Shown: one piece after another, positions 1-15,698 of the stretch
Layout: each line of letters begins with the position of its first letter
Position numbering within the stretch: position 1 is the stretch's first letter
Assembly (NCBI GenBank): GCA_963726455.1
Contig: CAVSCK010000004.1
Coordinates: forward strand, 992,001 to 1,056,000
Reading direction: 5' to 3'
Length of the DNA stretch: 64,000 nucleotides
Source: an uncultured bacterium
GTDB lineage: Bacteria > Zixibacteria > MSB-5A5 > CAIYYT01
Notes under the pieces: model-generated
What the model was told of the DNA's origin: nothing
Databases searched by the model: none
The model's input: only the letters and a program-made list of their open reading frames with translations
Translations under genes and position numbers: made by a program

Positions 1-1555
1 TGCATCAATCCAACCGTCCGGGCCGGAATCCAGCGCCGCCCACGAGCTGCCATTCCATTTCGCAATTCGATTTGCGTCGCCGCCTCCTGCCGTCGTGAAA
101 CCACCGCCGACGATCAGGCAGCTATCGTACACCGTCATCGCGTTGATATCGTTATTTACGCCGCTACCCACCGGGGACCATGACACGCCGTCCCAAGCCG
201 CAATACGACTTGCCGCTGCGCCGTCCGCCTGCGTGAAAGCGCCGCCTGCGTATAACTTTCCGTCATATTCCGTCATCGCCCAAACTTTGTCGTTAAACCC
301 CGCGCCTAGCGCTGTCCACGCCGCGCCGTCCCAGGCAGCCACATGATTGGCGGCTTGACCACCCATCACGCGGAAAACTCCGGCCGCAATCAGTTTGCCA
401 CCATATTCCGCAAAACAATAGACCGGACCGTTCGCACCCAATCCCATCGCCGACCATGTGCTTCCCGTCCATGATCCGATATTCGCAACCGGTAATCCTC
501 CGGCCTCCGTGAGCCATCCGCCGGCTACCAGGTTCCCGCCAAAATCTGCCAAGGCCGCCACACCCCCTTTCGACACCGTACCGACTGCTTGCCACTGCAA
601 TCCATCCCACGTCAAAACGCAGTTTGGTGATTCGGCGCCTTCCGTCACGTCGCGTCCACCGGCTATCAATTGGCCATCATGAACTCTGAGCGCATATACC
701 GCTGTGAAAGCGCCGATCGTAATTCCGGGGCCAATCGCCGACCACGAACTTCCGTTCCAACTGGCGACGCATTTTGCCGTCAGATCGTTCGCCTTGGAAA
801 ACATTCCGCCCGCAATCAATCGCCCCTGATATGTCGTCAATGCCGCCACCGTGTTATTCATTCCCGTTCCCAACGCCGACCATGTGCTGCCGTTCCACGA
901 CGCAATTCGGTTCACTACAGTCGTTCCGGCTTGCAGGAAATTTCCGCCCGCAATCAGGCAGGTATCAAACGCTGTCACCGAATAAACCCGATCCGTAAGA
1001 CCCGAACCGACTGCCGACCACATGGCGCCATCCCAGGCGGCGATATGCAACGTCACGGAATCGCCCGCCGTCGTGAAGTCTCCTCCCGCAATCAGCTTGC
1101 CGCGATAAACCATGAGCGCCCGCACCGAACCGTTCATACCTGTGCCCAGAGTCGACCACGATGCTCCGTCCCACGCCGCGATATAATTCGAGGTCAATCC
1201 TCCGGCAGTCGTGAATTCGCCGCTGACTATCAGCTTGCTGTCAAACGTTGTTACTGCAAACACTCTGCCGTTCGTTCCGGCATTCGAGCGAATCCCATAC
1301 CGAACCGTTCCACGACGCGATATTGCGCGCTTGCACGCTTCCGGCAACTTTGAAATCACCGCCGGCGATTAACTCCACACCGTAATTACCAAGTGCCAGC
1401 ACCGGACCGTCAATGCCCTGAACGTTAAACCCCGACTGCCAATATTGATCATCCGGATTCGGAATGGCCTGCGCGGGATATGTCTGCGATACAACCAGAG
1501 CGCAAATAAGGGTCAGCCAGGTCCGCGCCGTCGATACGAGCTTCATTGTTCGCAT
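1..1555 (-). CDS. Secreted beta-propeller repeat protein (WDG/WNGxxW repeats); 3' end outside window; one apparent frameshift at ~1285
   Basis: Signal peptide MRTMKLVSTARTWLTLICALVV. After removing one base near 1285 the frame reads NAGTNGRVFAVTTFDSKLIVSGEFTTAGG... with repeated LIAGGxF...IAAWDGxxW units continuing toward the window edge. Confidence 0.75.
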
Positions 1556-1665
1556 AACTAATCCTTTAGTTGCGAGTTTGTTGCGTTTGCGACAAGATGC
1601 ATTCTGCATTCCTCTGATCACAACCACAATCACTTTCTATTCCATCCGCATCCGGATTCATCAAA

Positions 1666-2724
1666 TTACCATTTCAACCAGTAGCTCGTGCTATCCGGCA
1701 CGGCCACCTGCTTGCGTAATATCGTTCCCGATGAATAGTAAAACGTGAAATCATATTTCGTATCATCGGGCTGCAAATCACTGCTGGGAATCAGATCGAG
1801 AAACCAGTAGCCGGACGAATCCGTTGCTGTCGACACCGCGTAGGGCGACACTACTGCGCCTCCTGCCTGAAGGGGCGACTTGCCGATCCGTGCCGTCACG
1901 ACGACGCTTTCCAGTCCGCCGGCTCCCAACGTGTGCACATATCCATAGACGCGGCAGAGCGCCATATTGCTCGATTGTCCCGGCTCAAATCTACTCGCCC
2001 AGATCGTGTCACATCCTCCCGACGCCGCAACTGTGACTGGCTTGGGCAAGGTTCCGAAATCGTATCCAGTTAGATACGGCAGCACATGATACTCCGCTGC
2101 ATCCAGCGACAACAGCAATCGTCCATCGCTATTCGTTTCGCCGATGGCAGCAGTTGCCGACTCCTGCGAATTAAGCGCCCGCATAAACACTCCTTGCACC
2201 GCCGATTGTGTGGTCGACTCGAACGCGTAGAGAGTGCAGGCGTAGGCGCCCGTTCCCGTCCCAGTCAATCGTTGTGCCAATATACCCAACGTGTCCTTGA
2301 TCGAATCACTATCGACCGCCAACTTCGCCAGGTAGTCCCCCACTTCATCATCGATCACTTGATATCCGCCGACGGCTGCGCCTCGCCAGTCACCACCGAT
2401 CTTGACACGCACGTATACCCGATAATTCCCCAAAGTGGCCGAGGAATTCGCGCCGCGATAATGAATGTCATACCAGCCCTCGCGCACTCGGTAGAAATTC
2501 GATGCTGTCTGTGTCAGCGAGTCGACGAGGCCGTTTTCCGGGCTGTAACGCAACACAATTATACTATCGGCATCGGCGACACGTGGATAGAGCGTCGTAT
2601 CGAACGTGCAGAAAGTAACTACTACCGAATCACTTGCGCCGTTGCCGACGAATGGCGGCGTGACCCAAATTCCGGCACACGCTGTTCCAACAAGAAACAA
2701 CACCAGTACTAATATTGTCCTCAT
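1666..2724 (-). CDS. Secreted hypothetical protein with carboxypeptidase-regulatory/Ig-like domains; C-terminal domain resembles phage fibre anchor domains
   Basis: 352-aa ORF, RBS GGAG, signal peptide MRTILVLVLFLVGTACA; motifs GETNSDGR and TATDSSGYWFLDLIPSSDLQP. Confidence 0.7.
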   Translation of the reverse strand: MRTILVLVLFLVGTACAGIWVTPPFVGNGASDSVVVTFCTFDTTLYPRVADADSIIVLRYSPENGLVDSLTQTASNFYRVREGWYDIHYRGANSSATLGNYRVYVRVKIGGDWRGAAVGGYQVIDDEVGDYLAKLAVDSDSIKDTLGILAQRLTGTGTGAYACTLYAFESTTQSAVQGVFMRALNSQESATAAIGETNSDGRLLLSLDAAEYHVLPYLTGYDFGTLPKPVTVAASGGCDTIWASRFEPGQSSNMALCRVYGYVHTLGAGGLESVVVTARIGKSPLQAGGAVVSPYAVSTATDSSGYWFLDLIPSSDLQPDDTKYDFTFYYSSGTILRKQVAVPDSTSYWLKW

Positions 2725-2725
2725 T

Positions 2726-4225
2726 TTAGTCTCCTATCAGTCCCGAGCCGACAATCTCAAATCTCCGGCGCTGGGAATTCTGTCCAAAGCTTTCAAGTCT
2801 GACTGTCACGACCGGCCGATTGTTGATGACGCCATCGTCGGCTGCGTAGTAAATGATTTCCGCGTCATTGATTGCGCCTGCTTGATTGTTCCAGAAGTTA
2901 TGCCAGACCCAGCCATGATTCATCGTGGTGTCGATCAGCATGCGCTGTGCATACACCGGCGGGATTGTCCAGGTAATCACGCTTCCCGCTGCCGTGTTGC
3001 TGCGGCTCTGGTGTAACGAATCCAGCACCGTATCAACCACGTCACTGTTTATGCCCAATGCGCCGCCTTGATTCCAGGCGTAGCCAAGCCCGTCTTGTTT
3101 GTAGCGATATGTCCAGCAAACATAGTCAGTGTTTGTCTGCCCCGTGGCGCGTCCGCATTGCCAGAACTGCTTCAGCAACCTGATGCCGTTGGTTGATTCC
3201 CACAGCGAGTCATTCAGGTCCTTTGCGACTTGCTTGACCCTGGTTCGAATCCCAAACTGCTCCACCACGGGTGACGGCTGCCACAGCTTGCGTGACATCG
3301 CGTCATTCTTGATCTTCATTACGCTTACTTTCGCATCATAATCCCAGCCGGTATAGAGATCAGGCCAGGCGCCGTAGCTTTCGAGCGAATCGGCTCCGGA
3401 CGAGTTCTCGAAAAATGCATCTTCGATTTCCAGCCAGCCGGTGAAACAAGCGTTGTGCTCAATGAAGTAGTTACCGGTATCGCGCGCCGCCCACGCCACC
3501 GTGCGGTTGAAGATTGTAAAGAACTGGCACGAATCGCGCGACGTTCCCGTTACCGAAAACAATCCGAGAAACGCGCGCCGTCCTCTGGCGACATTGTTGC
3601 CGTCGCCGGTATTGATGATCGTTTCACCCGAATCGGCAACCGCCAGATGCACGAACGCGGTGTCGCCGGCATTATCTTTGTCGATGATCAGCGGCGTGAT
3701 ATCGTGGCAGGTATCGGGAAACGCCAGTCCGTAGATTCCAATGGAAGTCGAGGTCCACAACAGCACCGTGTCCTGCAAGACGCGCGTAATCCAGTGATTC
3801 CGATTTATCGCGCGGACATAACCCGCATTCTCCAGCGTCCTGCCGTTGGTGCCGTCGGAATTGACACCGAGATTGATCTCGTTCCAATTCTCCGACAACA
3901 GACTGACAAAACCGACGCGCGATCTCGCGATCGTGTCCGCGTTGGCCGATGGCGCCGGAATGGCGACCTCGTTGCCGCACCAGACCACAACGTCGAATGC
4001 CGTATCGAAATAGGCCGCAGTGCGCTGCGCCACCGAATCGGGCGTCAGCCAGCGCACGCTGTATTCGAGGTCGCTGCACAGCGCATTGTACAGCAACGTG
4101 TCGATTCCCTTGTTGGCAATGTTGGCGACGACCAGCCCGGCACGTTTGCCGACGGCGTTTGCGTCGACCGCAGTCGCCAGTATCACGGCGAGTGCTATTC
4201 CGAATCCGACGATGACTCTTCTGAT
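2726..4225 (-). CDS. Secreted hypothetical protein, C-terminal DNRLRE-like domain; probable non-canonical ATC start (first GTG at 4186)
   Basis: 486-aa ORF from GTG 4186; in-frame upstream IRRVIVGFGIALA completes a signal peptide and follows SD AAGGAGG; C-terminal ...NHGWVW...YYAADD...NRPVVTV. Confidence 0.7.
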   Translation of the reverse strand: MRRVIVGFGIALAVILATAVDANAVGKRAGLVVANIANKGIDTLLYNALCSDLEYSVRWLTPDSVAQRTAAYFDTAFDVVVWCGNEVAIPAPSANADTIARSRVGFVSLLSENWNEINLGVNSDGTNGRTLENAGYVRAINRNHWITRVLQDTVLLWTSTSIGIYGLAFPDTCHDITPLIIDKDNAGDTAFVHLAVADSGETIINTGDGNNVARGRRAFLGLFSVTGTSRDSCQFFTIFNRTVAWAARDTGNYFIEHNACFTGWLEIEDAFFENSSGADSLESYGAWPDLYTGWDYDAKVSVMKIKNDAMSRKLWQPSPVVEQFGIRTRVKQVAKDLNDSLWESTNGIRLLKQFWQCGRATGQTNTDYVCWTYRYKQDGLGYAWNQGGALGINSDVVDTVLDSLHQSRSNTAAGSVITWTIPPVYAQRMLIDTTMNHGWVWHNFWNNQAGAINDAEIIYYAADDGVINNRPVVTVRLESFGQNSQRRRFEIVGSGLIGD

Positions 4226-4464
4226 GATGACTCCTCCTTTGATGACAGCTCTTCGTTGCGCAGTTGATTGATCAACTCCCAGATTTTCTGGCGTTCTTCC
4301 TCCGGCAGCCGCAACTTCATTTTCAGTTCCAGCGCCTTCAAAAGGTCACCGACCCGGGGATTGATTTCCTTGCTGCGCAGTTCCTCAATGATCTTGTCCT
4401 GAATTTCCTCCAGAACTTCCAGATCACTCTTGCGTATCTTCGCGGTGTTGTCGCTTTCGGTCAC
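4195..4464 (-). CDS. Small helical protein, possible small-terminase-like
   Basis: 89 aa, RBS GGAGG, amphipathic helices with VGDLLKALELKMKL; in the capsid operon. Confidence 0.65.
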   Translation of the reverse strand: MTESDNTAKIRKSDLEVLEEIQDKIIEELRSKEINPRVGDLLKALELKMKLRLPEEERQKIWELINQLRNEELSSKEESSSEESSSDSE

Positions 4465-4465
4465 T

Positions 4466-4621
4466 CTATTGCGCCTCCAATGATGCTTCCAGCAACTCGC
4501 ACGCCGTCTTCCTGAATCGTTTGCAGCAGACCGGGCAGCGGCGAATCACGCCCTGGCTGTTGGCGAAAAACAGCGCGCCGCAATGCGGGCAGAGCACGCC
4601 GTGTAATGGTTCATTCATCAT
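4466..4621 (-). CDS. 51-aa zinc-ribbon protein (not in ORF track)
   Basis: MMNEPLHGVLCPHCGALFFANSQGVIRRCPVCCKRFRKTACELLEASLEAQ; two CxxC motifs; fills the gap between neighbours. Confidence 0.7.
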   Translation of the reverse strand: MMNEPLHGVLCPHCGALFFANSQGVIRRCPVCCKRFRKTACELLEASLEAQ

Positions 4622-4626
4622 GCAGT

Positions 4627-4998
4627 TCACCCCATTTCAATTATCAGCAGATCGACCGCGGCCACCTGTGTCGTCGGTGTCGCTTTGGCAAGCGCAAACG
4701 ACTTGTCGCCTTCGCTCCCCTGTACGACCACCGGAATGCCACCCTTGGCCAGCGGCAACACACGCGGGTTGGTCAGTTGCTCCGGCAGTTTGTTTCCCTT
4801 CACGTCGACCAGATTCCCGTAGTTAAGTTGCTGCACGGTTCCACCCAGGGCGACTTGAGCGTGCACGATTCGCTTGGACGCGCCCTCGGATTCAGTTACC
4901 ACGAAGTGCGGCTCAAAGGCGGAAATCGTGCCCCAGACATTCACGCCTGACACCCACCACATCTTCTTGCCGAGAAGTTGACTCAATGTGGTACTCAT
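4627..4998 (-). CDS. Hypothetical protein (possible head-completion component)
   Basis: 123-aa ORF overlapping the upstream stop, RBS GGAGG/AGGGA. Confidence 0.7.
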   Translation of the reverse strand: MSTTLSQLLGKKMWWVSGVNVWGTISAFEPHFVVTESEGASKRIVHAQVALGGTVQQLNYGNLVDVKGNKLPEQLTNPRVLPLAKGGIPVVVQGSEGDKSFALAKATPTTQVAAVDLLIIEMG

Positions 4999-5834
4999 TG
5001 TTCCCTGCCTCCTTTCACTGCCGTCGGCGTATTCAGGCCGCCGCGCGGTCCGGCGAAACGCGCCGCCAGTTGCAGTCCATCGGCGTGATATTTGTCCGCC
5101 AACTCGCGCCAGCCACGCGCAATTTCTGCCGCACCGACTCCGACCGATTCCAGCGCGGCCGCTGCTTTGCCCCGGCAGAGGAATGCCAGCGCCAGATAGG
5201 TCTCGGCCGTGATCAATGATTGATCTCCGGCGTCCTGGTAAGAAGGATCGATCAGCTTCAGCAACAAGTCGTCCGCGGCGGTGATCGCACTCGCGATCAG
5301 CGAGTCATCGGTGCCACCACTCTGAGTTTGATAATCGACGAACACACTCTGGCCATCTTCGATGACGCCGGCGTTAATGCGCCGAAGCGTTCCCTTTTCG
5401 TGATTGACGCTGTAGTCGACGCCTTCCGTGTAGACGCGATAGGCGTAATACCAGACCGCAACGGATGTATCGCTCGGAATACTGCCGGCGGTGATGCGGG
5501 CAAGTTTGCCGTCGGCGTGGTCAACATGGTAATCGACGTTCTCAGTGTAGATGGTTCCCAAGGAACTGTCGGAAGCAACTACCACGCTGTCTGGGATCAG
5601 ATCGCGATTCGCCAGAGTGACCGGCTGCGAAGTCAAAGCCAGGTTTTCGAACCGTGGCGTGCCGATCTCTTTCCCTTTCACTTTCACTGTGCCCTGCCTG
5701 AGATTGGCGTGCAGCAACGCCGACGGCGACGCCGCCAGCAATTGCACCGACACATCCGTGAAAGTGTCACGCGCCTCGCCAACCTGCGCGAGATATTGTC
5801 TGATGGTTTCGATATTCGTAAATGGCATCTTCAC
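4995..5834 (-). CDS. Head-tail connector/adaptor-like protein with two inserted virion-type beta-sandwich repeats
   Basis: N-terminal FTNIETIRQYL and C-terminal DDSLIASAITAADDLL...AETYLALAFL helices typical of gp6/gp15-type adaptors; two YTExVDYxVxHxxGxLxRI repeats between them. Confidence 0.6.
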   Translation of the reverse strand: MKMPFTNIETIRQYLAQVGEARDTFTDVSVQLLAASPSALLHANLRQGTVKVKGKEIGTPRFENLALTSQPVTLANRDLIPDSVVVASDSSLGTIYTENVDYHVDHADGKLARITAGSIPSDTSVAVWYYAYRVYTEGVDYSVNHEKGTLRRINAGVIEDGQSVFVDYQTQSGGTDDSLIASAITAADDLLLKLIDPSYQDAGDQSLITAETYLALAFLCRGKAAAALESVGVGAAEIARGWRELADKYHADGLQLAARFAGPRGGLNTPTAVKGGREQ

Positions 5835-5841
5835 ACCTCCC

Positions 5842-7266
5842 TTAGTTGTTCAGGAAATTGATTTCGGGTAACGGCGTAATCTGGCTGCCGATCGGCGCAG
5901 TTGTGAATGCGGAAGTCACGATCACCTTGATCCAGTAAGCATTGAGACCGATGATCGCCGTCTTCTGCCAGTCAGCCGGAGCGGACGCGGAATCGATCCA
6001 GAGCCGGACGCGCTGGGTGAGTTGATCGAAATGATATGCGCCTGACTGTGGTGTGAACTCCTGCCAGGTAGCGCCGTCGAAATATGCCCAGGTTACCGCG
6101 CCACCCGCGTCACCTGCCGTTGACAATATGAAATTGCAGGCAGAGAATTTGTCATCCGCGCCGAGACAGATTGCGTCCCCGACGGACTGAATCAATTTGG
6201 TAGAATCCAAGTGACGAACGTCAGCGACGGCGCTGCTGGCGGCTTCCGCAGTTAGTCCCTGATAGTCGGGGATACCGTTGGTGTCGTACAACAACACATA
6301 CTTGAAGCGCACGAATTCGCCGTTGAGATCGACTGCGGGCTCGAAGCCGACGCCGTTCTTGCGGCGATAACGCAACTCTGTCTGGCCGTCACCGAGCGAC
6401 GTTCCGAAAATCACATAGGGAGTTGCGCCATTGAACATCAGCAACGGCGCAATGACGGGATCGGCGCCGATCTCGTAGGAGGCGCTCCAGTTGGCGCCGT
6501 CGTATTCGATGTACCAGGTTTTTGCGCCTGCGTTGACGGCCACTCCGATAAGTGAACCCGATTCGGAGCAACGCGCCGAAAACGCATCCGACAGCGATGT
6601 TCCGGTGTAAATCGTGACTTCGGATTCCCAGAAGACGCCGCCGTTTGGTATGCGCCGGTATGCGAGTTTGGCGCCGCCGTCGGTGTAGATGCAATACACC
6701 CACGGTTGCAGATACACGAAGCAGCCGTAGCAGCCGCTCGAACCGACCGTCAATGCCTCGCCGGGATCGGCACTTCCGGCCCCCCAGAGTGTGCCTTCAA
6801 CGACAGAAGTCTTGGCGTGTAAGGTATAATTGCCGGTCGCAGAATCGTAACAAGTCCACGAGACCCAGAGCTTACCGGAGACGTCTTTCAGAATCGACGG
6901 AAAGTAGTTGTCCTTGTCATTGTAAATCGTGGCTTCCGCGCCGACGGTCCACACTCCTGCCGAAAACGATAGCTTGCGGAATAACAGGTCGAGCGTGGTC
7001 TCCGCTGTGAATGCGATATAGACGTTGCCGTCTGAGTCCATAGTTGCAGCGACAGGATAGTCGGCGGCGTTGGTGGCGATGGTCTGCGGAGTCGACCAGT
7101 CGGCATACGGCGGATCGGCACAGCTGAATTTGATCGTAGAGGGCGAGGCGGAATAGACAACGATCTGCCTGCCGGAATAGACGCCGGACGTGATCGTAAA
7201 CAACTTGCCGGTCGGTGTGTTACCCGCGCCGTAGAAGGCGGTCGATGTATCAATCAGATTTTGCAT
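5842..7266 (-). CDS. Beta-propeller (BNR-like) protein plus C-terminal beta-sandwich; putative virion surface protein
   Basis: ATG 7266 after GAGGA; blade-like motifs (ATMDSDGNVYIAF, PSILKDVSGKLWVSW); no signal peptide; directly after the capsid gene. Confidence 0.65.
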   Translation of the reverse strand: MQNLIDTSTAFYGAGNTPTGKLFTITSGVYSGRQIVVYSASPSTIKFSCADPPYADWSTPQTIATNAADYPVAATMDSDGNVYIAFTAETTLDLLFRKLSFSAGVWTVGAEATIYNDKDNYFPSILKDVSGKLWVSWTCYDSATGNYTLHAKTSVVEGTLWGAGSADPGEALTVGSSGCYGCFVYLQPWVYCIYTDGGAKLAYRRIPNGGVFWESEVTIYTGTSLSDAFSARCSESGSLIGVAVNAGAKTWYIEYDGANWSASYEIGADPVIAPLLMFNGATPYVIFGTSLGDGQTELRYRRKNGVGFEPAVDLNGEFVRFKYVLLYDTNGIPDYQGLTAEAASSAVADVRHLDSTKLIQSVGDAICLGADDKFSACNFILSTAGDAGGAVTWAYFDGATWQEFTPQSGAYHFDQLTQRVRLWIDSASAPADWQKTAIIGLNAYWIKVIVTSAFTTAPIGSQITPLPEINFLNN

Positions 7267-7320
7267 GGTTTCCTCTTCAGCGCAGGCCGCCACGATTGCG
7301 CGCGGCGGCCTGCAACAGCG

Positions 7321-8442
7321 TTAGAACGTATCGTCCAGCACCAGCGATGCTTCGTTGATAACTTTGGCGTACGCCACGGACTCGGAGATGACTGCTTCCT
7401 CGAATTTCTGTTCGATGATGCGGTCATATTCCACCACCAGCGGCTGACTGATGACTTCCTCAACCGCGAAGCGTGAATCCATGCCGACGATCAGGTCGGA
7501 CGGAATTTCGTCGCAACGCACCAGCTTGGCGCCCAGCGGCGAGCCCAGTTCGCCCGTCGACTGGAACTTGAATCCGGCGAGCGGATCCTTGAATTCAGTG
7601 AGCGTGAGAATCTGCCGCATCTTGCTCTTGTGGCAGAGAAGCGTGTTCATCTCGAACGGCGCAAACTCCGCCCAGAATTTGACCAGGTCGTCATAGTCGA
7701 AGGAGCCGGAAACATCGGTGTTGAACATCGCGGCGGCATTGTCGTTGCCGTCGCCGTTCTGCACGACGTCAGCCAGCAATGCCACCTTGTCCGACTGCAA
7801 CCGGAAGCCGAGGTACCAGAGCAGCACTTTGAATTGAGCCAGTGTGCGATGCCGCAGCGTGCGATACGACACCTTCAGCGCGATGCCGTATTCCGGCACG
7901 GTCACGGTCTTCTTCTGTTCGTTGACGACGAACTGCGGAATTTCAGCGCCCTCGGATATCGGTCGCAACGACAACCGGCTGTCGCCGGGGGTGATGTTGA
8001 GATAGAGCGGCGAATAGCGATTGGAGCCGATCACCGTCTGCGCGGCGGTGAGTTGATTGTATACTGGGCGCATCGCCATCCCTTTGCGGACCTCGCGCAT
8101 CACGAACTCCGGCAAGAGCGACGCGGCGGCGCGATAGAATGCTTCGACGGTGTCGGGAGTTCTGCCGTTGACGCGAATGCCGTGCACCGCGAGTTGTCTT
8201 TCGAAGGCATCGAGCGGCGCGCCAACCGGCGAGGGATCGTAGTCATCGCCTTCCAGCAGTTCGGTCAAGCTCAAGCCCCTGGCTTGCGCTTCGAGATAAG
8301 TGTCGCGCGTGATGTTGATCTTGCCGGCGCGGCTTAAATCGACGTTCGCCAGCCGCGTATCTTTGCCGGCAAATGCATCAAGATCAGGCGCCGTGAGATT
8401 CCAGAAGTTGTCCGGTATTTGTTTCAGGTTTTCTAATTCCAT
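7321..8442 (-). CDS. Major capsid protein (HK97 fold)
   Basis: 373 aa from ATG 8442 (RBS AAGGAG); motifs DAFERQL, LLPEF, ISEGAEIP, VVQNGDGN; canonical position after protease, scaffold and decoration genes. Confidence 0.85.
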   Translation of the reverse strand: MELENLKQIPDNFWNLTAPDLDAFAGKDTRLANVDLSRAGKINITRDTYLEAQARGLSLTELLEGDDYDPSPVGAPLDAFERQLAVHGIRVNGRTPDTVEAFYRAAASLLPEFVMREVRKGMAMRPVYNQLTAAQTVIGSNRYSPLYLNITPGDSRLSLRPISEGAEIPQFVVNEQKKTVTVPEYGIALKVSYRTLRHRTLAQFKVLLWYLGFRLQSDKVALLADVVQNGDGNDNAAAMFNTDVSGSFDYDDLVKFWAEFAPFEMNTLLCHKSKMRQILTLTEFKDPLAGFKFQSTGELGSPLGAKLVRCDEIPSDLIVGMDSRFAVEEVISQPLVVEYDRIIEQKFEEAVISESVAYAKVINEASLVLDDTF

Positions 8443-8524
8443 TCCTTCTCCTTTGCGGCCAGTCACGTTGACAGGCCATAGTTGATCGATTGCCAGGTAA
8501 TTGCTGCTCCCCTTGTGCACTGCC

Positions 8525-8947
8525 TCAATTGAGGAGCAGCGTGCAGTCGCTGGTGCCGTTAACCGACAACACCAGTCCGCGCGCGATATTGCCGCCGGCA
8601 GGATCGTTGCCGGTCAACGCTGGCGCTTGTTTGATTTTGCCGTCGGCGGCGCCGACGATGCTGTTGCCGATTACCGGATAGGTAGCTGCGATGGCGAGAG
8701 ACATCACGCCGGCTACCTGCACGGTCGCTTTGCGCTTGCCGTTGTCGGCATCAGTGAGAGTGAGCGCGATCAACTTACCGAGCACCTGTACCCCGTCGGT
8801 GGTAGCTTTGACCCGGTTGCCGGTACTCAGTTGAACGGCTTTGCCGATGTCAGCGTTCTTGAGGTCGTCGCTGCCGGCGGTTTGAGCGATGTCGAAGGTC
8901 AGATATAGCGCGCCGGTGGTTTCCAGATTTTGTTCACGTACTGCCAT
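8525..8947 (-). CDS. Head decoration/capsid cement protein
   Basis: 140 aa with DIGKAVQL...ATVQVAG...AADGKIK; immediately upstream of the capsid gene. Confidence 0.7.
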   Translation of the reverse strand: MAVREQNLETTGALYLTFDIAQTAGSDDLKNADIGKAVQLSTGNRVKATTDGVQVLGKLIALTLTDADNGKRKATVQVAGVMSLAIAATYPVIGNSIVGAADGKIKQAPALTGNDPAGGNIARGLVLSVNGTSDCTLLLN

Positions 8948-9000
8948 TGTGATCCTTTCCAGTCAGTTTGGTTCGCGTCGGTTTGTCGGCGAACCAATGG

Positions 9001-9396
9001 TTACACTTTGAACTCGGACGTCTTTTCTCCCCCGGCGGCCGCACCTGTCGGCTCTGTCTGCTTGCGGGAGAAGACGCGGTCGAATTCGGTTTCGATGTCC
9101 TGTTTGATTCGTTGCAGGTCGGCAAGGTCGGTCGTGTCGGCGGAGATTAAGCGTTCGACCAATGCGCTCGAACCGCCGGCGAGGCGGGCGATAGCGCGGG
9201 CTTTGCTGCAGAGCTCGTCTTTGAACAGTTGCACGAGGCGGTCGGCGATTGCCGCGCGCGCCTGCAGTGCCTGCAGAACCGTGACGGCGTTCTCAAGCTC
9301 AACGGCGAGTTGCTCGAAATCGATGTCGGCAAGTTGCGCCTGCTTGAGGCGTCCGGCGGTTTGCATGAGTGATTCAAACAGTTTGGTGAATTCCAT
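9001..9396 (-). CDS. Coiled-coil scaffold-like protein
   Basis: ATG 9396 after GAGGAGG; helical, low-complexity C-tail ending SEFKV; between protease and decoration genes. Confidence 0.6.
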   Translation of the reverse strand: MEFTKLFESLMQTAGRLKQAQLADIDFEQLAVELENAVTVLQALQARAAIADRLVQLFKDELCSKARAIARLAGGSSALVERLISADTTDLADLQRIKQDIETEFDRVFSRKQTEPTGAAAGGEKTSEFKV

Positions 9397-9437
9397 GATA
9401 TCCTCCTCTGAAGTTTCGTTGATAGAGATTGCGAGTG

Positions 9438-9761
9438 TCAACGTTCGTCACCGGGTAGCATTTGCAATTTGGCTTCAATGATGAGCAGTTGACGATGCAG
9501 GTCGTCGCGGACCTGTTGCAGTTCGGCTTTGGTGGCCATGCGTTCGGTCAGAATGGTTTCGATGCGCACCAGGCGGCTGTCGATAGTGGTCACCATGGCG
9601 GAGTCGGCCTTGGCGGCGATCTCCGATTTGAGGCCGTAGATGGTGGCGTGATAGGCGGTGACAATTCCCGCCACCGTCACGATCAGACCCAGCAGAAATC
9701 GCAACAGGTTTTCTTTGCGGAACAGCTCCGGCCTGTGGCTCGAATTAGACAGTCTGTTCAT
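9438..9761 (-). CDS. Single-TM plus coiled-coil protein (holin/XhlA-like architecture)
   Basis: 107 aa; TM LLRFLLGLIVTVAGIVTAY followed by heptad repeats. Confidence 0.6.
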   Translation of the reverse strand: MNRLSNSSHRPELFRKENLLRFLLGLIVTVAGIVTAYHATIYGLKSEIAAKADSAMVTTIDSRLVRIETILTERMATKAELQQVRDDLHRQLLIIEAKLQMLPGDER

Positions 9762-11559
9762 GTTGCATACTCCTTCTCAGCTTTCCGAACAACCAGATGG
9801 CGCGCTTGCCGAAATGCGTCTGCTCAATCGCATAGTGGCCGGACAACGAGGCGCCGGAAAGTTCAAGCGCAATCTTGTTGGGAGTGGATTGATCGAGGCC
9901 ATTGATCACACCCTGATCGACCAGAGCGACGCGACCGGAAGGACGTTCGCAATGTGGCGAGTTGTCGATTTGTTGGCATACCTGTCGATGTCCAACCGGC
10001 AGTGTTATGGGATTGCGTCCGCGCAGGCGCAGCACTGACACGCTGTCATCGTGATGAAGTTCGAGCCAGTAGTCGCCGCGGCTGTCGTGCAGCAGGCGGA
10101 AACGATTGTCGCCATTCGTCGGCTTCAGCTTGGTTGCGACAGATGCGAAGTCGGGGTAAGCGTCGCCGATGCAGAGATCGAGATAGACAAATCGATTCCG
10201 ATCATGCTTGTCAGGATGCACCACGATGATTTCGCCGGTGTGCAGGTGCGAGGTCTTTCCGATCAGACGATGACAAGTTGGCGTTTCAGTTTCAATGGAC
10301 GTTCTGAATTCGACAAAGTAGTTCGACTTCCCATTCGCTTGCGGCTCGATGACAACTTTGCCGCGCAATTGTTGCTGGTGACGAATCTCGAAGACCTGCG
10401 GCGCATCACTGCCGGCGAGATCGATAATGCGCATTCCTTCGCCACTCCCCTTGCTCGCGGCCTTGTGTTGCAGGTCAACGAAGCGGCAGCGATAATGAGC
10501 CAGCGGCGCAATCGATTGTGAACGAGTGAAACGCTTTGTGAGAATCGCCTTGCGTTCGATCAGTGAAAGTCGCGACAGATCGGCGCCATCCAGACGATAA
10601 AGATCGACCAGACTCAGAAAACAGCGCGGCTGCTTCCTTCCAGAGGAATACTCTCGCAACGTCTCAAGCGATAGACGGCTGGCGCCTTTTACCGGAATCA
10701 GTTGCGCCAGTACTCGGAAGTCGGCGACGCCAGATGAGCCGGTGAGTTCGTCCAGAATCGGATCGGTGAAACACGTGCCGTCAAGTTTCGTCGCCGTGAG
10801 TTTGCCGGCGCGCGAGTCGATATCGAGCCAGATGCCGTGATAGAGTGGCTCGATCAGAATTTCATCGAGTGGGGTTTTGAGTTTCGCAAGGTCAAAGAAG
10901 ACCTCGGCCCGCGAGCGCCAGAACGTGTCGGTTGAATCCGTGAAGTCGACATCGGCGGCCAGCGAACTCACGCGCGTGTTGGGGACGGCGCCACGATAGA
11001 CGAGCGAGACTTCCAGCACTTTTTCAATCTGCTTGTAGAAGTAGAATGCGCGTACCTCCCTGCCGCCAAGGCGAACGACTTCATTAAGGCGGTGCCGGCA
11101 ATGCCGCATATCTTCGCGACAGATGCAGCATTCCGGTTTGCCGTAAAGAAATCCGAGGGAACATTCTTTGTAGATGCCGGATTCGATGCCGGCCTTCAAC
11201 GTGTCGGCGTCGCGTTGATCGCGGTGCCAGTAGAACCAGGCCTGCAACCAGGGAGTGCCGTCGCGAGGAACAACTTCGCTTTTGAAGACGCGGCCGATCG
11301 GCAGTTCCTGTTTCTTGTGCCCAACCATGACCGGCGCATCGACGATCAGTTGTGCGAGTTGTGTCAACTCAGTGATCTCGAAACAGCCGCCCTGCAGGTT
11401 GACTTCGTTCGATGCCGCCTGCAAGAGGCCGAGATAGACGTTGTCGGCTGTGACCGATTGCGACGGCTGCACGACGCGGTTGATTTCATCGATAAGTTCC
11501 TGTCGATCGCCCAACTCACCGGCGGCTGAGATCGACAATGAACCAATAAGCTTTTCCAC
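9745..11559 (-). CDS. Prohead protease fused to degenerate ATP-dependent DNA ligase and LigD phosphoesterase-like domains
   Basis: GTG 11559 after GAGGAGG; protease motifs PVMVGH, PIGRVF, GIYKECSLGF...CCIC...C.H, LEVSLVYRGA; ligase-like IEPLYHG, DLYRLDGADLSRLSLIERKAIL, GEGM; PE-like LVDQG...LELSGASLSGHY...WLFGK. Confidence 0.75.
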   Translation of the reverse strand: MEKLIGSLSISAAGELGDRQELIDEINRVVQPSQSVTADNVYLGLLQAASNEVNLQGGCFEITELTQLAQLIVDAPVMVGHKKQELPIGRVFKSEVVPRDGTPWLQAWFYWHRDQRDADTLKAGIESGIYKECSLGFLYGKPECCICREDMRHCRHRLNEVVRLGGREVRAFYFYKQIEKVLEVSLVYRGAVPNTRVSSLAADVDFTDSTDTFWRSRAEVFFDLAKLKTPLDEILIEPLYHGIWLDIDSRAGKLTATKLDGTCFTDPILDELTGSSGVADFRVLAQLIPVKGASRLSLETLREYSSGRKQPRCFLSLVDLYRLDGADLSRLSLIERKAILTKRFTRSQSIAPLAHYRCRFVDLQHKAASKGSGEGMRIIDLAGSDAPQVFEIRHQQQLRGKVVIEPQANGKSNYFVEFRTSIETETPTCHRLIGKTSHLHTGEIIVVHPDKHDRNRFVYLDLCIGDAYPDFASVATKLKPTNGDNRFRLLHDSRGDYWLELHHDDSVSVLRLRGRNPITLPVGHRQVCQQIDNSPHCERPSGRVALVDQGVINGLDQSTPNKIALELSGASLSGHYAIEQTHFGKRAIWLFGKLRRSMQHEQTV

Positions 11560-11795
11560 TGTACCTCCTCGGGGCTTACCACATGCCCTCACTTATGTCC
11601 GCCATGTGGATTTATCCTCAAGAGCACTACAAAAATTCGGGGGCCCGTTGAAGACGTAAGTCGCTGTTGGGCAACAACGGGAAATGTGCACACGTTTGCG
11701 CAAGAAACCGGGTTGTTGCGGGTCGGATTTACCAGCAAAAATATTTTCGTGATGCTGGACAATGTGTTACGATGTTTTTGGGCTTGACAGGTCTG

Positions 11796-11810
11796 GGCAC
11801 GAGAGTTGCT
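11796..11810 (+). promoter_or_regulatory. sigma54 -24/-12 promoter for the PEP-CTERM gene
   Basis: GGCACGAGAGTTGCT matches GGCACG-N4-TTGC, 30 bp upstream of the start. Confidence 0.7.
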
Positions 11811-11840
11811 TGAGTATGTGTCGCAAGAAGGAGGAAATTC

Positions 11841-12176
11841 TTGGAACGTACAATGACTTATCTGAAGCTGCTCGGTATCCTGATCGGGATCGTGATGACG
11901 ATTCTCTGTTTGGGTTACACGAATGCCTACGGAATAACCGCTCCGCATTTTCTGATGAACAATCAGAACGGCGGCACGAACTCGACCGGCCTTACCAGTG
12001 GTGGCGACATAACTGACGAGGTCAGGATTCTGGGGGACAGATTCAATCAGGATAATCTGGACGGCACCAATTCGACCGGCGATGAAAAGAGTCCGCCGTC
12101 GATTCCGGAACCGGCGACGCTGATACTGTTGGGCACCGGTCTGGTTGGTGTCAAGCTGTTCAGACGGCGCCATTAG
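11841..12176 (+). CDS. Small PEP-CTERM sorting-domain protein
   Basis: Signal peptide; C-terminal IPEPATLILLGTGLVGVKLFRRRH; RBS AAGGAGG before TTG. Confidence 0.9.
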   Translation: MERTMTYLKLLGILIGIVMTILCLGYTNAYGITAPHFLMNNQNGGTNSTGLTSGGDITDEVRILGDRFNQDNLDGTNSTGDEKSPPSIPEPATLILLGTGLVGVKLFRRRH

Positions 12177-13504
12177 ATTTCACTCAGGCGAAAGCCGGGG
12201 CTGATTCCACGATTTGCAACAACTTTCGCCTGCCACAGCGCCAGCGCCAAAGCCATACAGGCATCGGCAGTGGTGTTTTCCTCCCAACTCAATTCACGTA
12301 ATTCCTCGGTAAACGACCAGTAGTCGTTGTTGGCCGTCGTCAATTCGATGGACGGAATGGCGACATTGCTCGATTCGAATTGCGATTGCAGATTCGTGAG
12401 CAACTCAGGTTTGGATTTCGGCGAGAAGATGAAGCCGATGGCTTTGATGTCCTGCAATTCCTGCAGTACGACATCGCCGGCGCCGGTGGCATCAATGATG
12501 GTGTCACCGCCGAATTCGCGTTGACGTTGGCGAATCGTTTCGAAGACGTTCGGCCAGTCGCGACGATGGAAGCGTTCGAGTTTGACGACTTGGTGCGGAC
12601 GCGTGGTGACATCGAGCGTAATGCCGACGGTATATGTCTGTTTGCGCGCGAGATCCCAGCCATGAATGTAGCGATGATGCGGTAGTTTCTCCGACATTCC
12701 GGTTGATTGCGACAGCGCCTGCTGAATGTACTCCTCCCCTAACACCGCATTTCCCGAATCGACGAACATGCCATAGATGTTTTGTTGAACGCGCGTTTGC
12801 GGCAGCGATTCGATTTTGGCGCAGAGGTATTCGCTGGAGAGAAAGGGATTGTCGGTTGATCTGCCGGAGTGAACATAGCCCGTATCAGGTTGCGATTGGA
12901 GTTCAAGATATTTGCGATGGAACCAATTGCGTCCGCGCGGAGTCGAGACCAGGTCGAGCATGCCCTTGCGGTCAGCGAGGCGCATAGTCAAGACTTCGTT
13001 GACGACATAGTCAGGATGCAACTCAAAGGCGACCTCGTCGAAATTGATGTAGTCGTAATCATGGCCGAGAATATGTTCGCCGCGATTCTGCGACGTGCGG
13101 GCCGTGATTTCGGCGCCGTTGCCGAGTTCGATTTTGGGATACGGCGTGTAGGTGACTTTGTCGACGAGCAACTCGACCAGCGATTTGCCTTTGATGAGAT
13201 TGAGGCAATTCGTGAAGATGATGTTGGCCTGATCCTGCGTGATGGAAACATTGAGCACTCGGTAACGGCCCGCGGAATCGAAGCGCGTGTCGCGATGGCG
13301 ATAGACGGCGCGGTGAATAATCTTGGCGGCCTGAATCGTTGATTTGCCCCAACGGTTGCCGGTCACGAGCAGGTTCTGACCGCAGGTTGAATTTGTCAGC
13401 CAGGCGGCTTGTCCCGGATGGGGATCGAGTTCGAGAAATTCGCGGCAGAAAAGCACGGGATCGGTGACGGCTTTTCGCCAGCGGCTGTGTTTACCTACGC
13501 GCAT
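12173..13504 (-). CDS. terL: Terminase large subunit
   Basis: Walker A TGNRWGKS, Walker B YINFDE, coupling motif STPRG, nuclease motifs GWDLA, IIDATG, ADACMALALA. Confidence 0.9.
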   Translation of the reverse strand: MRVGKHSRWRKAVTDPVLFCREFLELDPHPGQAAWLTNSTCGQNLLVTGNRWGKSTIQAAKIIHRAVYRHRDTRFDSAGRYRVLNVSITQDQANIIFTNCLNLIKGKSLVELLVDKVTYTPYPKIELGNGAEITARTSQNRGEHILGHDYDYINFDEVAFELHPDYVVNEVLTMRLADRKGMLDLVSTPRGRNWFHRKYLELQSQPDTGYVHSGRSTDNPFLSSEYLCAKIESLPQTRVQQNIYGMFVDSGNAVLGEEYIQQALSQSTGMSEKLPHHRYIHGWDLARKQTYTVGITLDVTTRPHQVVKLERFHRRDWPNVFETIRQRQREFGGDTIIDATGAGDVVLQELQDIKAIGFIFSPKSKPELLTNLQSQFESSNVAIPSIELTTANNDYWSFTEELRELSWEENTTADACMALALALWQAKVVANRGISPGFRLSEI

Positions 13505-13554
13505 AGGGTGACCTTTCTATTCTGTGAGACACAGGTGTTTCGATGGGACACGGA

Positions 13555-13890
13555 ACACACCCCTTGATCCCCTCTCGAGAGGGGAAAACAACAAACGGCT
13601 CATCTCGCGGCTGGAAAAGAGAGCGTCAAGACCGAAGCGGTTTTGATCTATAACTACTACACCTACGCGCATGGGCATGATAGATTGCCTCCTCCTGTCT
13701 TCGGACAATCAGGAATGTTTGACCTACGAGGCCTCTTGATGCAAGGCGCGTTACGAGAGGGACAAACAGGAATGTTTATCCTACCGAACTGCTCACACTT
13801 GCATACGCCGGCATAGATTCTATTACCCATTCGTACATCGCAACAAACTTCCCTCACCCCTAGCCCCTCTCCCAATGGGAGAGGGGAAGA
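13555..13890. repeat. Host REP-like palindrome cluster between portal and terL
   Basis: ACACCCCTTGATCCCCTCTCGAGAGGGGAA, GGACAAACAGGAATGTTTATCC and CCCTCACCCCTAGCCCCTCTCCCAATGGGAGAGGGG; same families as the intergenic clusters at 18.8-30.4 kb. Confidence 0.85.
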
Positions 13891-14021
13891 GGGTGTTGGG
13901 GGATGAAGTGCGGGGTGGTGTGAGGATGATGAGGGTGACATTGCTTCTCCTGACTAGACTAGCGATGGACGAGGGCTGCGTTTTCGCAGCGTCGCAGGTC
14001 GTCTATTCCATACTTGGCGGA

Positions 14022-15302
14022 TCACTGCATCCGTGACAGTTCGCGTAAGGCCTGATCGTGTGTGATCAGTTTGTTGTCGAGCTTGGTGATGATGTTTTCG
14101 AGCATGATCTTTTCGGCCTGGGCGCGGTCGGCGATGCCGATGGTGATGCGGTTGTCGAAATGAGAACGGACTTCGACATTGAATCCGAGGAGCGCCAGTT
14201 CAACGTTGGCAATCCAATCAATCAGCGATGCCGCCGCCTGCTGCACGGTGGCGACCTGCCGCTGCACGAGTTCATACTTGAACTCGGCCCAGTTGTGCGT
14301 GGTGCCATACGCGTAGCCGAGCATGAAGGGCGCGAGATTGGTGCCGGCGCAGATGTCCTCGATCATGGCCTTGTGGTTCATGTACCAAGCCGTCGACGCG
14401 GAAGATTTGGACGACGGGCCGATGTATTCGATCTTGACATCGTTCCAGGTGACCGGATTCTTGTCGGGGCCGAAGTCGTGCATCATCTCGACGGTGTCAT
14501 CGAAATAGGAATTGGCGCGGCGGTAATAGTCCTCTTCGGTTTCGTCGGCGCGGCGTTCCGGTGGCGTGAGTTGCACGTGAATGCGGTGGTAGCCGGAGCT
14601 GCGCATGGAGCGATGCATGTCATTGATCAGGGTTTGCTCGACGCGGGCGACGAAAGGAATCGAATGTAGCAGCGAGCGGCCGACAACATTGCCGGGTTGC
14701 GTGCCGAGACCGTAGTAGAAGATCGATTGGTCGTTGAGCGGGATTTTGTGTTCGTCGAAAGATTGATACAGCCGATGGTGGTCGCCCTCCTGCTCGACCG
14801 TGATGGACAACATATCCGCGAGCAGAAATCGTTCGACGCGATTGCGCGAGGGCGTAAGTTGCAGCTCGCCGCAGATGGCGCCGTCGGTGAAGAGTGATTC
14901 GAAAAATTGGAGTAGCAGTTCGCGAAAGCCGCCGCGCTTCATCAGCCCGTCGCGGAAAATGCGGGCATCAAGATCGGCAAGCGCCGTGCGGATACGGTCT
15001 TCCTCGGAAGCCGAGACATCGCCGACGACCTGGAAGTCATAGTCAGCAGCGCAGAGCCGCACCCAGGTCCAGACGACGGCGTTGAGAACGGGGACGTGGT
15101 CGCGCAGGAAACGGTAGAGCTGCCGCCGCGCGCGGTCGGTTTCGGCGGCGTCAACCGGAAGGCGGGGATTGAGTTCGAGGAATGAAGCGCGCAGCCGGGG
15201 GCGGGATTTGAGGCCCGCCGGTACGTCTAACTTGTTGGTCTTGCGCAGGTTCTCGTTGATTGTGGCATTGTTGCGCCGTTTTCGCCAAAAGTCTGTGATC
15301 AT
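14022..15302 (-). CDS. Phage portal protein
   Basis: 426 aa, RBS AGGAGG; LYRFLRDHVPVL, GRSLLHSIPF, ICAGTNLAPFMLG; adjacent to terL. Confidence 0.8.
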   Translation of the reverse strand: MITDFWRKRRNNATINENLRKTNKLDVPAGLKSRPRLRASFLELNPRLPVDAAETDRARRQLYRFLRDHVPVLNAVVWTWVRLCAADYDFQVVGDVSASEEDRIRTALADLDARIFRDGLMKRGGFRELLLQFFESLFTDGAICGELQLTPSRNRVERFLLADMLSITVEQEGDHHRLYQSFDEHKIPLNDQSIFYYGLGTQPGNVVGRSLLHSIPFVARVEQTLINDMHRSMRSSGYHRIHVQLTPPERRADETEEDYYRRANSYFDDTVEMMHDFGPDKNPVTWNDVKIEYIGPSSKSSASTAWYMNHKAMIEDICAGTNLAPFMLGYAYGTTHNWAEFKYELVQRQVATVQQAAASLIDWIANVELALLGFNVEVRSHFDNRITIGIADRAQAEKIMLENIITKLDNKLITHDQALRELSRMQ

Positions 15303-15376
15303 GTTTCGATAGTCCTCCTACTTATGGGGGCGACCAAGATTTTTGGTGTTCGGCGCTACAAAAATGCAAAAAGGAC

Positions 15377-15407
15377 TTGCGCGTCAACGCTGGCTTGATT
15401 ATATAAT
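15377..15407 (+). promoter_or_regulatory. Putative sigma70 promoter for a small RNA
   Basis: TTGCGC ... TATATAAT directly upstream of the 15419-15506 hairpin. Confidence 0.5.
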
Positions 15408-15410
15408 CAC

Positions 15411-15514
15411 CGGAAACCCGAGTGTTGTTGTTGGTTTAGACACAAGCCAAAAGCATTCAAAGATCTCCAACTTGTGTTCCCCGCAATAGCCAACACACAA
15501 CACTCGCTTTTTTT
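15411..15514 (+). ncRNA. Candidate ~100-nt small RNA (long interrupted hairpin followed by T7)
   Basis: CGAGTGTTGT/ACAACACTCG, TGTTGGTT/AGCCAACA and ACACAAG/CTTGTGT pair; TTTTTTT at 15508-15514; no ORF. Confidence 0.55.
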
Positions 15515-15698
15515 GCGTAAGCGCCGCACAAACTGCGATCAGCTAATCTCAAGCCACACAAACTCTTAGTGTTTTCGGGACAACATTTCTGTTTAGGTCA
15601 TGGGCGCAGTTACTGCTCTGCGTTGACTGCGCCGGAATGCCCCTCAGTTAAGAGCTTGTATTTCAGTCAGTTACGAAATGGCAAATAAGAGAAGTGCG

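Follow-up and report, generated by a model that had tools for sequence, protein, structure and literature searches.

The subject of this analysis is a module of phage-like head and DNA-packaging genes, ~14 kb in length, at positions 1666-15302 of a 64,000-nucleotide stretch of DNA (the window, G000:C4:992001-1056000) from an uncultured member of the phylum Zixibacteria, whose genome consists of 5 contigs and was scored as 100% complete. Every real gene of the module except one lies on the minus strand. The initial annotation, which was made from the sequence, had described an apparently domesticated and tail-less phage head module at this position, and the open reading frames (ORFs) that it named were all recovered at their coordinates, on the minus strand and uninterrupted. 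Judged by sequence and fold, the gene products comprise a portal, a large terminase subunit (TerL) whose ATPase and nuclease sites are intact, a protein resembling prohead proteases, a decoration protein, a capsid protein of the HK97 type and a head-to-tail adaptor similar to gp6. In the direction of transcription, the portal gene is followed by a 517-nt spacer, the TerL gene, a PEP-CTERM gene on the plus strand, and the genes for p615, p107, p146, the decoration protein, the capsid protein, p483, p279, p123, p89, p486 and p352. The features are as follows (AF2, AlphaFold2 model; Ig, immunoglobulin).

14022-15302, minus strand: portal protein, 426 aa, matching phrog_3753 (E 1.7e-21) and two more portal PHROGs
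13505-14021: spacer between the portal and TerL genes, with two copies of a genome-dispersed palindrome
12173-13504, minus strand: TerL, 443 aa, matching phrog_2 (E 1.3e-30)
11841-12176, plus strand: small PEP-CTERM exported protein, matching PF07589 at residues 87-110 of 111 (E 5e-7, 30 bits, cut-off 20.7)
9745-11592, minus strand: p615, 615 aa, with a prohead-protease-like N-terminal part of ~210 aa that carries a CxxC..C.H insert, and a variable C-terminal part of ~400 aa
9438-9761, minus strand: p107, 107 aa, with an N-terminal hydrophobic (membrane) helix and a coiled coil predicted from sequence
9001-9441, minus strand: p146, 146 aa, helical, probable scaffold protein
8525-8947, minus strand: decoration/virion protein, 140 aa, matching phrog_4588 (E 6.7e-8)
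7321-8520, minus strand: major capsid protein, matching phrog_3922 (E 1.3e-63) and PF25209 (27.1 bits, cut-off 27)
5842-7293, minus strand: p483, 483 aa, beta-propeller with a C-terminal beta-sandwich, lectin/glycan-lyase-like in its AF2 model
4995-5834, minus strand: p279, 279 aa, gp6-like head-to-tail adaptor by fold, with an inserted Ig-like beta domain
4627-4998, minus strand: p123, 123-aa orphan, possible head-closure protein by its position
4195-4464, minus strand: p89, acidic coiled-coil protein of 89 aa, from sequence
2726-4186, minus strand: p486, 486-aa orphan confined to two families
1666-2724, minus strand: p352, exported protein of 352 aa with a signal peptide, closing the conserved block

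The initial annotation had proposed a search of other Zixibacteria genomes, and this search showed the module to be near-universal rather than patchy in the phylum. Among 285 species-level genomes, the capsid gene was present in 256 (189 of the 198 high-quality genomes), which represent 119 of 130 genera and for the most part have a single match each, and TerL was present in 261 at E<=1e-20 (190 of the high-quality genomes). The identity of the capsid protein was 85% within the genus, ~73% to another genus of the same family, and 57-65% to other families. Stop codons inside the matches were rare, with one in the capsid gene and two in TerL among the matches listed. Furthermore, five of the 120 best database proteins carried an organism name, and all five of these were from Zixibacteria.

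Gene order was compared in 40 loci from 16 families with the window's proteins as tblastn queries, and synteny, another check that had been suggested for the locus, was found to be kept throughout this set. The common order is portal, TerL, protease-like protein, p107, p146 (in some loci), decoration protein, capsid protein, p483, p279, p123, p89 and the exported protein. All 40 loci had the decoration and capsid genes, and p483 was found in 39, p615 and p279 in 38 each, and p123 in 37; counts for the portal (32), p352 (32), TerL (31) and p89 (28) were lower, and many of these misses were cuts at contig ends. In addition, an all-versus-all clustering of ORFs, which was independent of the window's proteins, recovered the same conserved set in 41 loci, with the decoration gene in 41, p483 in 40, p279 in 39, p123 in 38, p107 in 35 (15 families), p352 in 35, p89 in 33 (14 families) and the portal in 33, where again many misses were loci cut at a contig end. 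The arrangement varies in places. The order of p123 and p279 is reversed in four families, and some families have host genes within the module. Family f13 has its parts scattered, such that in one closed genome (G207:C1) TerL at 1180822-1182096 and the capsid gene at 1290074-1291198 lie 110 kb apart, and in two loci of this family (L026 and L044) a host SBBP gene stands between the capsid/p483 block and the adaptor gene.

The surroundings of the module were scanned with Pfam and PHROG models, and only host genes were detected in ~20 kb on each side. In the module and these flanks, no gene was recognised for an integrase, for replication or lysis, or for a sheath, tube, tape measure or baseplate, in agreement with the initial annotation, which had found no integration, replication, tail or lysis gene on either side. 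Similarly, no tRNA was found within window positions 1-30000, and no att site, tRNA target or regulatory gene was found at the locus and in the flanks scanned. The chromosomal context is partly shared with relatives, as the Lon protease gene adjoins the module in another genus too and host genes upstream of the portal are common to three families.

To follow the inheritance of the module, we compared gene trees with taxonomic family labels. In the capsid tree (54 rows, 16 families), 15 changes of family label were counted, which is the minimum, against a mean of 35.5 after shuffling of labels; none of 200 shuffles was as low, and all 11 families with at least two rows formed one side of a branch. 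In the TerL and portal trees (32 rows and 12 families each), 11 changes were counted in each, again the minimum, and 0 of 200 shuffles were as low. Congruence of the TerL and capsid trees with taxonomy, which the initial annotation had named as a check, was therefore observed at the level of labels. We also estimated the ratio of nonsynonymous to synonymous substitution rates (dN/dS) for the pair of loci L041/L004, and obtained 0.064 for the portal, 0.091 for TerL, 0.068 for the capsid protein, 0.09 for p146, 0.11 for p107, 0.18 for p615, 0.18 for p483 and 0.21 for the decoration protein. These eight values (0.06-0.21) are far below 1, so that the neutral ratio that the initial annotation had named as speaking against its reading was not seen in this pair. 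Moreover, the capsid protein was more conserved than the neighbouring Lon in five of five genomes (73, 57, 62, 57 and 62% versus 71, 44, 42, 47 and 35%, respectively), with the reservation that Lon has paralogues and that one Lon match was partial.

We then consider the individual proteins, beginning with the packaging motor and the shell. The Walker A and Walker B motifs, the STP coupling motif and four nuclease aspartates of TerL were invariant in 32 of 32 aligned orthologues. No small terminase (TerS) was recognised among the module proteins by the Pfam and PHROG scans. The orthologues of the capsid protein are ~370 aa long, and thus the true start of the protein probably lies near residue 27. 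Profiles of the portal and capsid proteins gave nothing convincing among sequences of the Protein Data Bank (PDB).

The protease-like protein p615 is matched by phrog_16951 in 17 of 17 members, and conservation across families is seen in its N-terminal ~210 aa, where H92, S145 and E194 are invariant and the CxxC..C.H motif lies. This protein was aligned by hhalign, with a probability of 98.9 and an E of 1.6e-17, to the same-position gene of L068, a complete contractile-tailed phage represented by a 55-kb IMG/VR contig; this counterpart also matches head-maturation-protease PHROGs. The alignment to HK97 gp4 was weak (E 0.0058), and in it H92 is paired with H65 and S145 with S114, which we take to be the catalytic residues of gp4. 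The protease domain gave nothing convincing among PDB sequences, and we label p615 as protease-like, judging from its sequence, rather than as a tested member of the S78 family. Note that in-frame stops in two p615 orthologues were rejected as disruptions, since they lie upstream of the true start codon. Downstream of p615, p107 has only weak PHROG matches, the best of them being "minor head protein" (E 2e-4). For p146, which has no Pfam or PHROG family match, the position just upstream of the decoration and capsid genes and the helical sequence suggest a probable scaffold; p146 clusters with p615, and in some genomes (e.g., L025) it forms the C-terminal part of the p615 protein, and this fusion to the protease-like protein fits a scaffold.

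Two of the genes that follow the capsid gene were examined by structure prediction. The AF2 model of p279 (predicted local distance difference test score, pLDDT, 84.8) has a helix at its N terminus, a helical bundle at its C terminus and, inserted between the two, a beta domain that resembles the Ig-like domains of tail proteins. In a library-wide comparison with VIA-align, the top nine rows were all phage neck or portal-tail chains, with Z scores of 9.3 for the Mu neck, 8.7 for HK97 gp6 (91 of 96 aa aligned), 8.7 for GP4, 8.6 for Pa223 and 8.2 for SU10; the adaptor of the Rhodobacter capsulatus gene transfer agent (RcGTA; 6tba chain 2A) and Carin-1 followed at 7.2 and 7.1. Z scores of 8-9 (8.2-9.3 in the top rows) are middling for helical folds, and the weight rests on the consistency of the matches, as 22 of the 50 best rows were phage neck, connector or portal-tail assembly chains spanning both ends of the model. 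On the sequence side, p279 has no Pfam match and no similarity to HK97 gp6, an Atlas search gave only weak leads (0.85-0.89) to connector families, and hhalign of p279 and p123 against HK97 gp6 and gp7 and against the post-capsid genes of L068 gave nothing. The assignment of p279 as a gp6-like adaptor is thus supported by its predicted fold.

The AF2 model of p483 has a pLDDT of 89.9 and a predicted TM-score (pTM) of 0.85. Its best structural matches by VIA-align were the Photorhabdus PLL/PHL lectins (Z 26.8, root-mean-square deviation 2.4 over 279 aa), followed by a PL25 ulvan lyase (Z 25.8), a putative neuraminidase (Z 24.0) and glycoside hydrolases. Foldseek returned structures of sialidases with a carbohydrate-binding module and a chain of the portal-tail complex of phage LME-1, and the search against BFVD returned phage structural proteins. 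We regard p483 as a candidate fibre, spike or nozzle, based on these models. In two genomes of one genus (G028 and G029), the p483 ORF is reduced to 311 aa. Profiles of p483, p279 and p123 gave nothing convincing among PDB sequences.

The remaining proteins are orphans or exported. p123 has 14 invariant columns and no match in Pfam, PHROGs, PDB sequences or the Atlas; by its position, it is possibly a head-closure protein. Neither p89 nor the C-terminal part of p615 has an informative Pfam or PHROG match. p486, also without a family match in Pfam and PHROGs, is limited to the window's own family and one more (f1 and f9), corresponding to 6 of the 40 tblastn loci. p352 has a signal peptide here and in nearly all of its 32 orthologues, as judged by eye, in line with the earlier remark that the module runs on into signal-peptide genes, and it is unlikely to be part of a particle assembled in the cytoplasm. 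Its C-terminal ~200 aa contain two conserved beta-sandwich domains with 16 invariant columns, and its profile matched the Ig-like repeats of NOMO (E 3.9e-5) and an adhesin domain (E 0.012) in the PDB, with nothing informative in Pfam or PHROGs. Separately, a single-pass membrane protein of ~105 aa is encoded after p352 on the same strand in 19 loci from 10 families (e.g., L025:1347-1661 and L027:2256-2570); it is not present in the window's genome and has no Pfam or PHROG match. A holin-like role considered from topology for a small membrane protein (c15) was dropped, as no holin family matched.

Tail genes were searched beyond the locus. The window's genome contains no match to the Pfam models for sheath, tape measure, TTP_1 and Baseplate_J, and none of the module proteins has a match among the PHROGs for tail, TerS or lysis functions. 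That this genome encodes no long tail is thus well supported by sequence searches, within the reach of the four family models, and the annotation's suggestion to look for tail genes elsewhere in the genome yielded none by the same models. Without a tube, sheath, tape measure or baseplate, the particle would be tail-less or would have only a short stub.

We also looked for the origin of the module. When the library was clustered at 50% identity, the Zixibacteria capsid formed one full-length cluster, and the next capsid clusters were at most 40% identical, had 1-8 members and came from scattered organisms (e.g., a Hinthialibacter metagenome-assembled genome and Sporanaerobacter). In the phage collection, the closest capsid was 33-37% and the closest TerL 24-28% identical; the closest records were gut contigs without annotation, in which the portal and capsid genes are all that is shared with the module, and a search with P0124 returned no viral contig. 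The nearest complete phage found was L068, which has a Sporanaerobacter-type capsid ~38% identical to that of Zixibacteria. Its genes run in the order TerS, TerL, portal, then the trio phrog_16951, phrog_4588 and phrog_3922, then Neck1, tail sheath and tape measure. Accordingly, L068 and the Zixibacteria module share protease-like, decoration and capsid genes in the same order, with the decoration family directly preceding the capsid gene in both, and their TerL and portal proteins belong to the same PHROGs. On the other hand, the phage has TerS, Neck1, sheath, tube and tape measure, which the module lacks; where L068 has its tail genes, the module has the propeller, the adaptor with its Ig-like insert, the orphans and the exported protein. 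The shared trio indicates descent of the module from the head module of a tailed phage lineage with contractile-tailed living members. The close homologues of the module genes lie in host-flanked syntenic Zixibacteria modules and not in complete prophages with att sites, the situation that the initial annotation had held would speak against its reading.

Taken together, the near-universal distribution, the synteny, the minimum-change trees and the low dN/dS point to a vertically inherited and selected module rather than a decaying prophage. Our reading, to which we give a probability of about 75%, is that an ancestor of the Zixibacteria sampled here acquired a phage-derived head and DNA-packaging module once, that vertical inheritance under purifying selection has kept it since then as a single-copy module of the chromosome, and that it has become domesticated. 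The initial annotation had likewise proposed a host-retained system; the host retention is supported by distribution, selection and context, and the DNA-packaging particle itself is an inference.

Several points weigh against this reading. Families f11 (0 of 2 genomes) and f12 (0 of 1) lack the module, as do some complete genomes (e.g., G121, 98% complete). Congruence was assessed with family labels and not with a species tree, and related genomes are not independent of one another. The pair L041/L004 was the only one unsaturated in dS (0.22-0.41), and the other six pairs were saturated; one p615 value from the saturated pairs was left out owing to codon misalignment. The Pfam S78 model (PF04586) matches nothing in the genome even at E<=10, nor any of the 17 p615 members. 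The genus g9 (G028, which carries locus L025, and G029) keeps the portal, protease, decoration, capsid and adaptor genes and has no canonical TerL, the only trace being a 322-aa ORF at another place in the genome that matches phrog_2 weakly (E 2e-5), and this is hard to reconcile with packaging as an essential role. The search for tail genes, made in one genome with four Pfam families, would miss a divergent short tail; components of a tail could be among the orphans p123, p89 and p486 or in the C-terminal part of p615, and the Foldseek match of p483 to the LME-1 portal-tail chain, together with the likeness of the adaptor to podovirus adaptors, leaves room for a short tail. Finally, particle formation, DNA content and function are read from the genes.

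If the module works as its genes suggest, the scaffold, protease, portal and capsid protein would assemble a procapsid, which the protease would mature, and TerL would pump in and cut DNA. Since no small terminase was recognised, packaging would be expected to take in host DNA with little regard to its sequence. The portal would be sealed by a ring of the adaptor, with p123 perhaps taking part, and p483 would sit at the neck or on the shell, where it may bind or cut a surface glycan. The most likely use would be similar to that of gene transfer agents (GTAs), namely the export and transfer, or the protection, of host DNA among kin.

The form of the particle is less clear than its inheritance. 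It is possible, and we put it forward tentatively, that a truly tail-less, DNA-filled capsid has been kept by the whole phylum since its early radiation, sealed by the adaptor and carrying glycan-binding propellers, and that it serves as a vehicle for DNA export or protection, with uptake by kin without injection (e.g., after binding to a polysaccharide matrix). The term "tail-less" in the initial annotation holds for long tails, whose parts were not found; it does not extend to short ones, as the gp6-like adaptor and the adjacent beta-propeller could form a short stub or fibres. A short podovirus-like tail built from the adaptor, p483 and one or more of p123, p89 and p486, which would make the module a complete domesticated short-tailed GTA-like particle able to deliver DNA, is accordingly an alternative that we consider possible but doubtful. 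T7-like tails consist of just an adaptor, a nozzle and fibres (PMC12407071). The adaptor of the module is as large as podovirus adaptors and matches them (GP4, Pa223, SU10 and Carin-1) about as well as it matches HK97 gp6; the p483 and adaptor genes are neighbours in 39-40 of 41 loci, and second among the Foldseek matches of p483 is the LME-1 chain (E 1.8e-10). However, beta-propellers match one another generically, re-ranking by VIA-align favours lectins and glycan lyases and leaves the LME-1 chain outside the best 50 rows, the orphans match no tail PHROG, and the nearest complete phage relative found is contractile-tailed rather than short-tailed.

Capsids that need the tails of infecting phages, or that interfere with phage assembly as a defence, and that are kept for transfer with hijacked tails or for protection against phages, are a further explanation, which we regard as unlikely. 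Phage-inducible chromosomal islands of the capsid-forming type (cf-PICIs) encode their own capsid, portal, terminase and head-tail connector and no tail. They belong to the mobile satellites, carry genes for an integrase, for regulation and for replication, and occur patchily across species. The module, in which the adaptor is likewise conserved, resembles them in having head, packaging and connector genes of its own without a tail, as has been described for cf-PICIs (10.1101/2025.02.11.637232). It differs from them in that the scans of the module and its flanks gave no integrase, replication or regulatory gene and no att site or tRNA target, and in being single-copy and syntenic, with trees that follow host taxonomy and a conserved chromosomal context, which is the opposite of a mobile satellite. 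Because it shows neither mobility genes nor mobile behaviour, we do not regard it as a satellite of the cf-PICI type. Reliance on particular helper tails is also hard to square with conservation over at least 16 families.

A DNA-free protein shell, either a nanocompartment or another structural use of the capsid, is less probable still. Such a shell would suit genus g9, in which capsid, decoration, adaptor and portal are kept without canonical TerL, and the long variable C-terminal part of the protease-like protein could be seen in the same light. Against this, the portal and TerL are conserved with the capsid in ~90% of genomes, and all checked catalytic residues of TerL are invariant. Encapsulins, which share with the module an HK97-type shell protein encoded and maintained by the host, are not known to have a portal, terminase, prohead protease or adaptor, whereas the module has a conserved portal, terminase, protease-like protein and adaptor. 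It is not an encapsulin, since portal and terminase are present, and the term "nanocompartment-like" that the initial annotation had offered as an option is unsupported because the portal and a catalytically intact TerL are conserved.

The least probable explanation, a cryptic or decaying prophage remnant or an active temperate phage common in the phylum, draws on the matches of the head genes to PHROG families and on one IMG/VR record that calls a module contig viral, but it is contradicted by the near-universal, single-copy occurrence, by stop-free ORFs with low dN/dS and invariant catalytic motifs, by families that are monophyletic by label in three gene trees, and by a size of ~14 kb in which no replication, integration, lysis or tail genes were found. 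The IMG/VR record in question, L004 (IMGVR_UViG_3300027896_005586, 11 kb), is the same chromosomal module of a close relative, with a capsid 84% identical, a dockerin-domain gene fragment at one end and a PEP-CTERM gene inside, and its filing as viral is probably a false virus call.

Among known systems, the vertically inherited and domesticated module is closest to GTAs. To our knowledge, known domesticated phage particles (GTAs) are few, each confined to one lineage, and all tailed. The head-tail cluster of RcGTA includes the tail tube, tape measure and baseplate. Like RcGTA, the Zixibacteria module consists of phage-derived structural genes in the host chromosome without genes of its own for replication, integration or spread, as far as the Pfam and PHROG scans of the module and its flanks reach, its genes are spread over several loci in some lineages, and its adaptor is of the same fold class (6tba chain 2A). 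Vertical inheritance with purifying selection across the host clade, here seen with taxonomic labels, is also shared: a single ancient acquisition followed by vertical inheritance and selection is the same signature as that of the alphaproteobacterial GTAs, for which vertical inheritance across a large clade and maintenance by selection are described (PMC5721377, PMC10883770). In contrast, the tube, tape measure and baseplate of RcGTA were not recognised in the Zixibacteria module, nor was a small terminase, and the module belongs to another, uncultured phylum and is known from its genes; no link to RcGTA genes at the sequence level was found or looked for. The module would work like the head of a GTA, yet we do not file it as a GTA, since for the defining features of tail, random packaging and transfer it is at most a candidate. 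Literature on Zixibacteria together with capsid, gene transfer agent or terminase apparently holds nothing on the module in titles and the beginnings of abstracts, while supplements could hold gene lists. We propose it as a candidate domesticated phage particle system of independent origin, phylum-wide and with a head-and-neck-only parts list.

Within the module, two host features interrupt the phage-like genes. The initial annotation had noted that host palindromes divide the portal gene from the TerL gene; indeed, the spacer contains two copies (at 13569 and 13864) of a palindrome, CCCCTCTC..GAGAGGGG, that occurs in 21 copies genome-wide. Six of the 21 copies are clustered within 10 kb (window positions 13569, 13864, 19044, 22026, 23310 and 23826). 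A 92-aa ORF in the spacer (13663-13941) is probably not a gene, because its translation runs through the palindrome. The convergent gene between TerL and the protease-like gene had been called a PEP-CTERM gene, and the PF07589 score of 30 bits (cut-off 20.7) confirms the call; the class is marked by a C-terminal PEP motif, a transmembrane helix and a basic tail. A small PEP-CTERM gene on the opposite strand occupies the same gap in 17 loci from five families, and it evolves fast, with a dN/dS of 0.84 for the pair L041/L004. The 194-aa minus-strand ORF at 11589-12173 is probably a shadow ORF. In eight loci from four families, a PEP-CTERM protein of 250-290 aa is encoded upstream of the portal (e.g., L059:15532-16287).

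Upstream of the portal in the window, ~850 nt (15303-16149) contain no ORF of at least 60 aa on either strand, and a consensus scan of this region gave no promoter; it could be the control region of the module. Note that in the promoter and terminator scan, sites were rarer than in shuffled sequence. The left flank of the module carries genes for a dockerin beta-propeller protein, a CDP-alcohol phosphatidyltransferase, an LVIVD/dockerin protein, Lon and a helicase, and the right flank carries genes for two SBBP/dockerin proteins, an ABC transporter, FtsX, an oxidoreductase, TauE, CvpA and a response regulator. The dockerin beta-propeller gene of the left flank (window 1-1633, continuing to G000:C4:991269) looks frameshifted: a 130-aa ORF at 1241-1633 encodes a signal peptide and the start of the propeller repeats, and overlaps the start of the 696-aa main ORF in a different frame. 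In the right flank, the N-terminal part of the SBBP/dockerin protein at 16150-18651 contains tandem peptide repeats (..REGGNPGSF.DTDTRH..), suggesting that a DNA repeat was inserted into the coding sequence.

In conclusion, about 90% of 285 species-level genomes of an uncultured phylum carry this small (~14 kb) and self-contained module, whose capsid protein evolves more slowly than a neighbouring housekeeping protease and whose set of parts is unusual in combining a head, a packaging motor and an adaptor with a lectin-like propeller while having no long tail. Public records already include at least one contig with the module that is filed as viral, and if DNA-filled particles are made, surveys of viromes and virus-like-particle fractions would hold host DNA derived from the module. 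A tail-less, DNA-filled capsid, if true, would be a virus-like particle of a new class, owned by the host and different from every tailed GTA. The production of DNA-filled particles would also mean that Zixibacteria of sediment and soil possess a dedicated vehicle for gene exchange.

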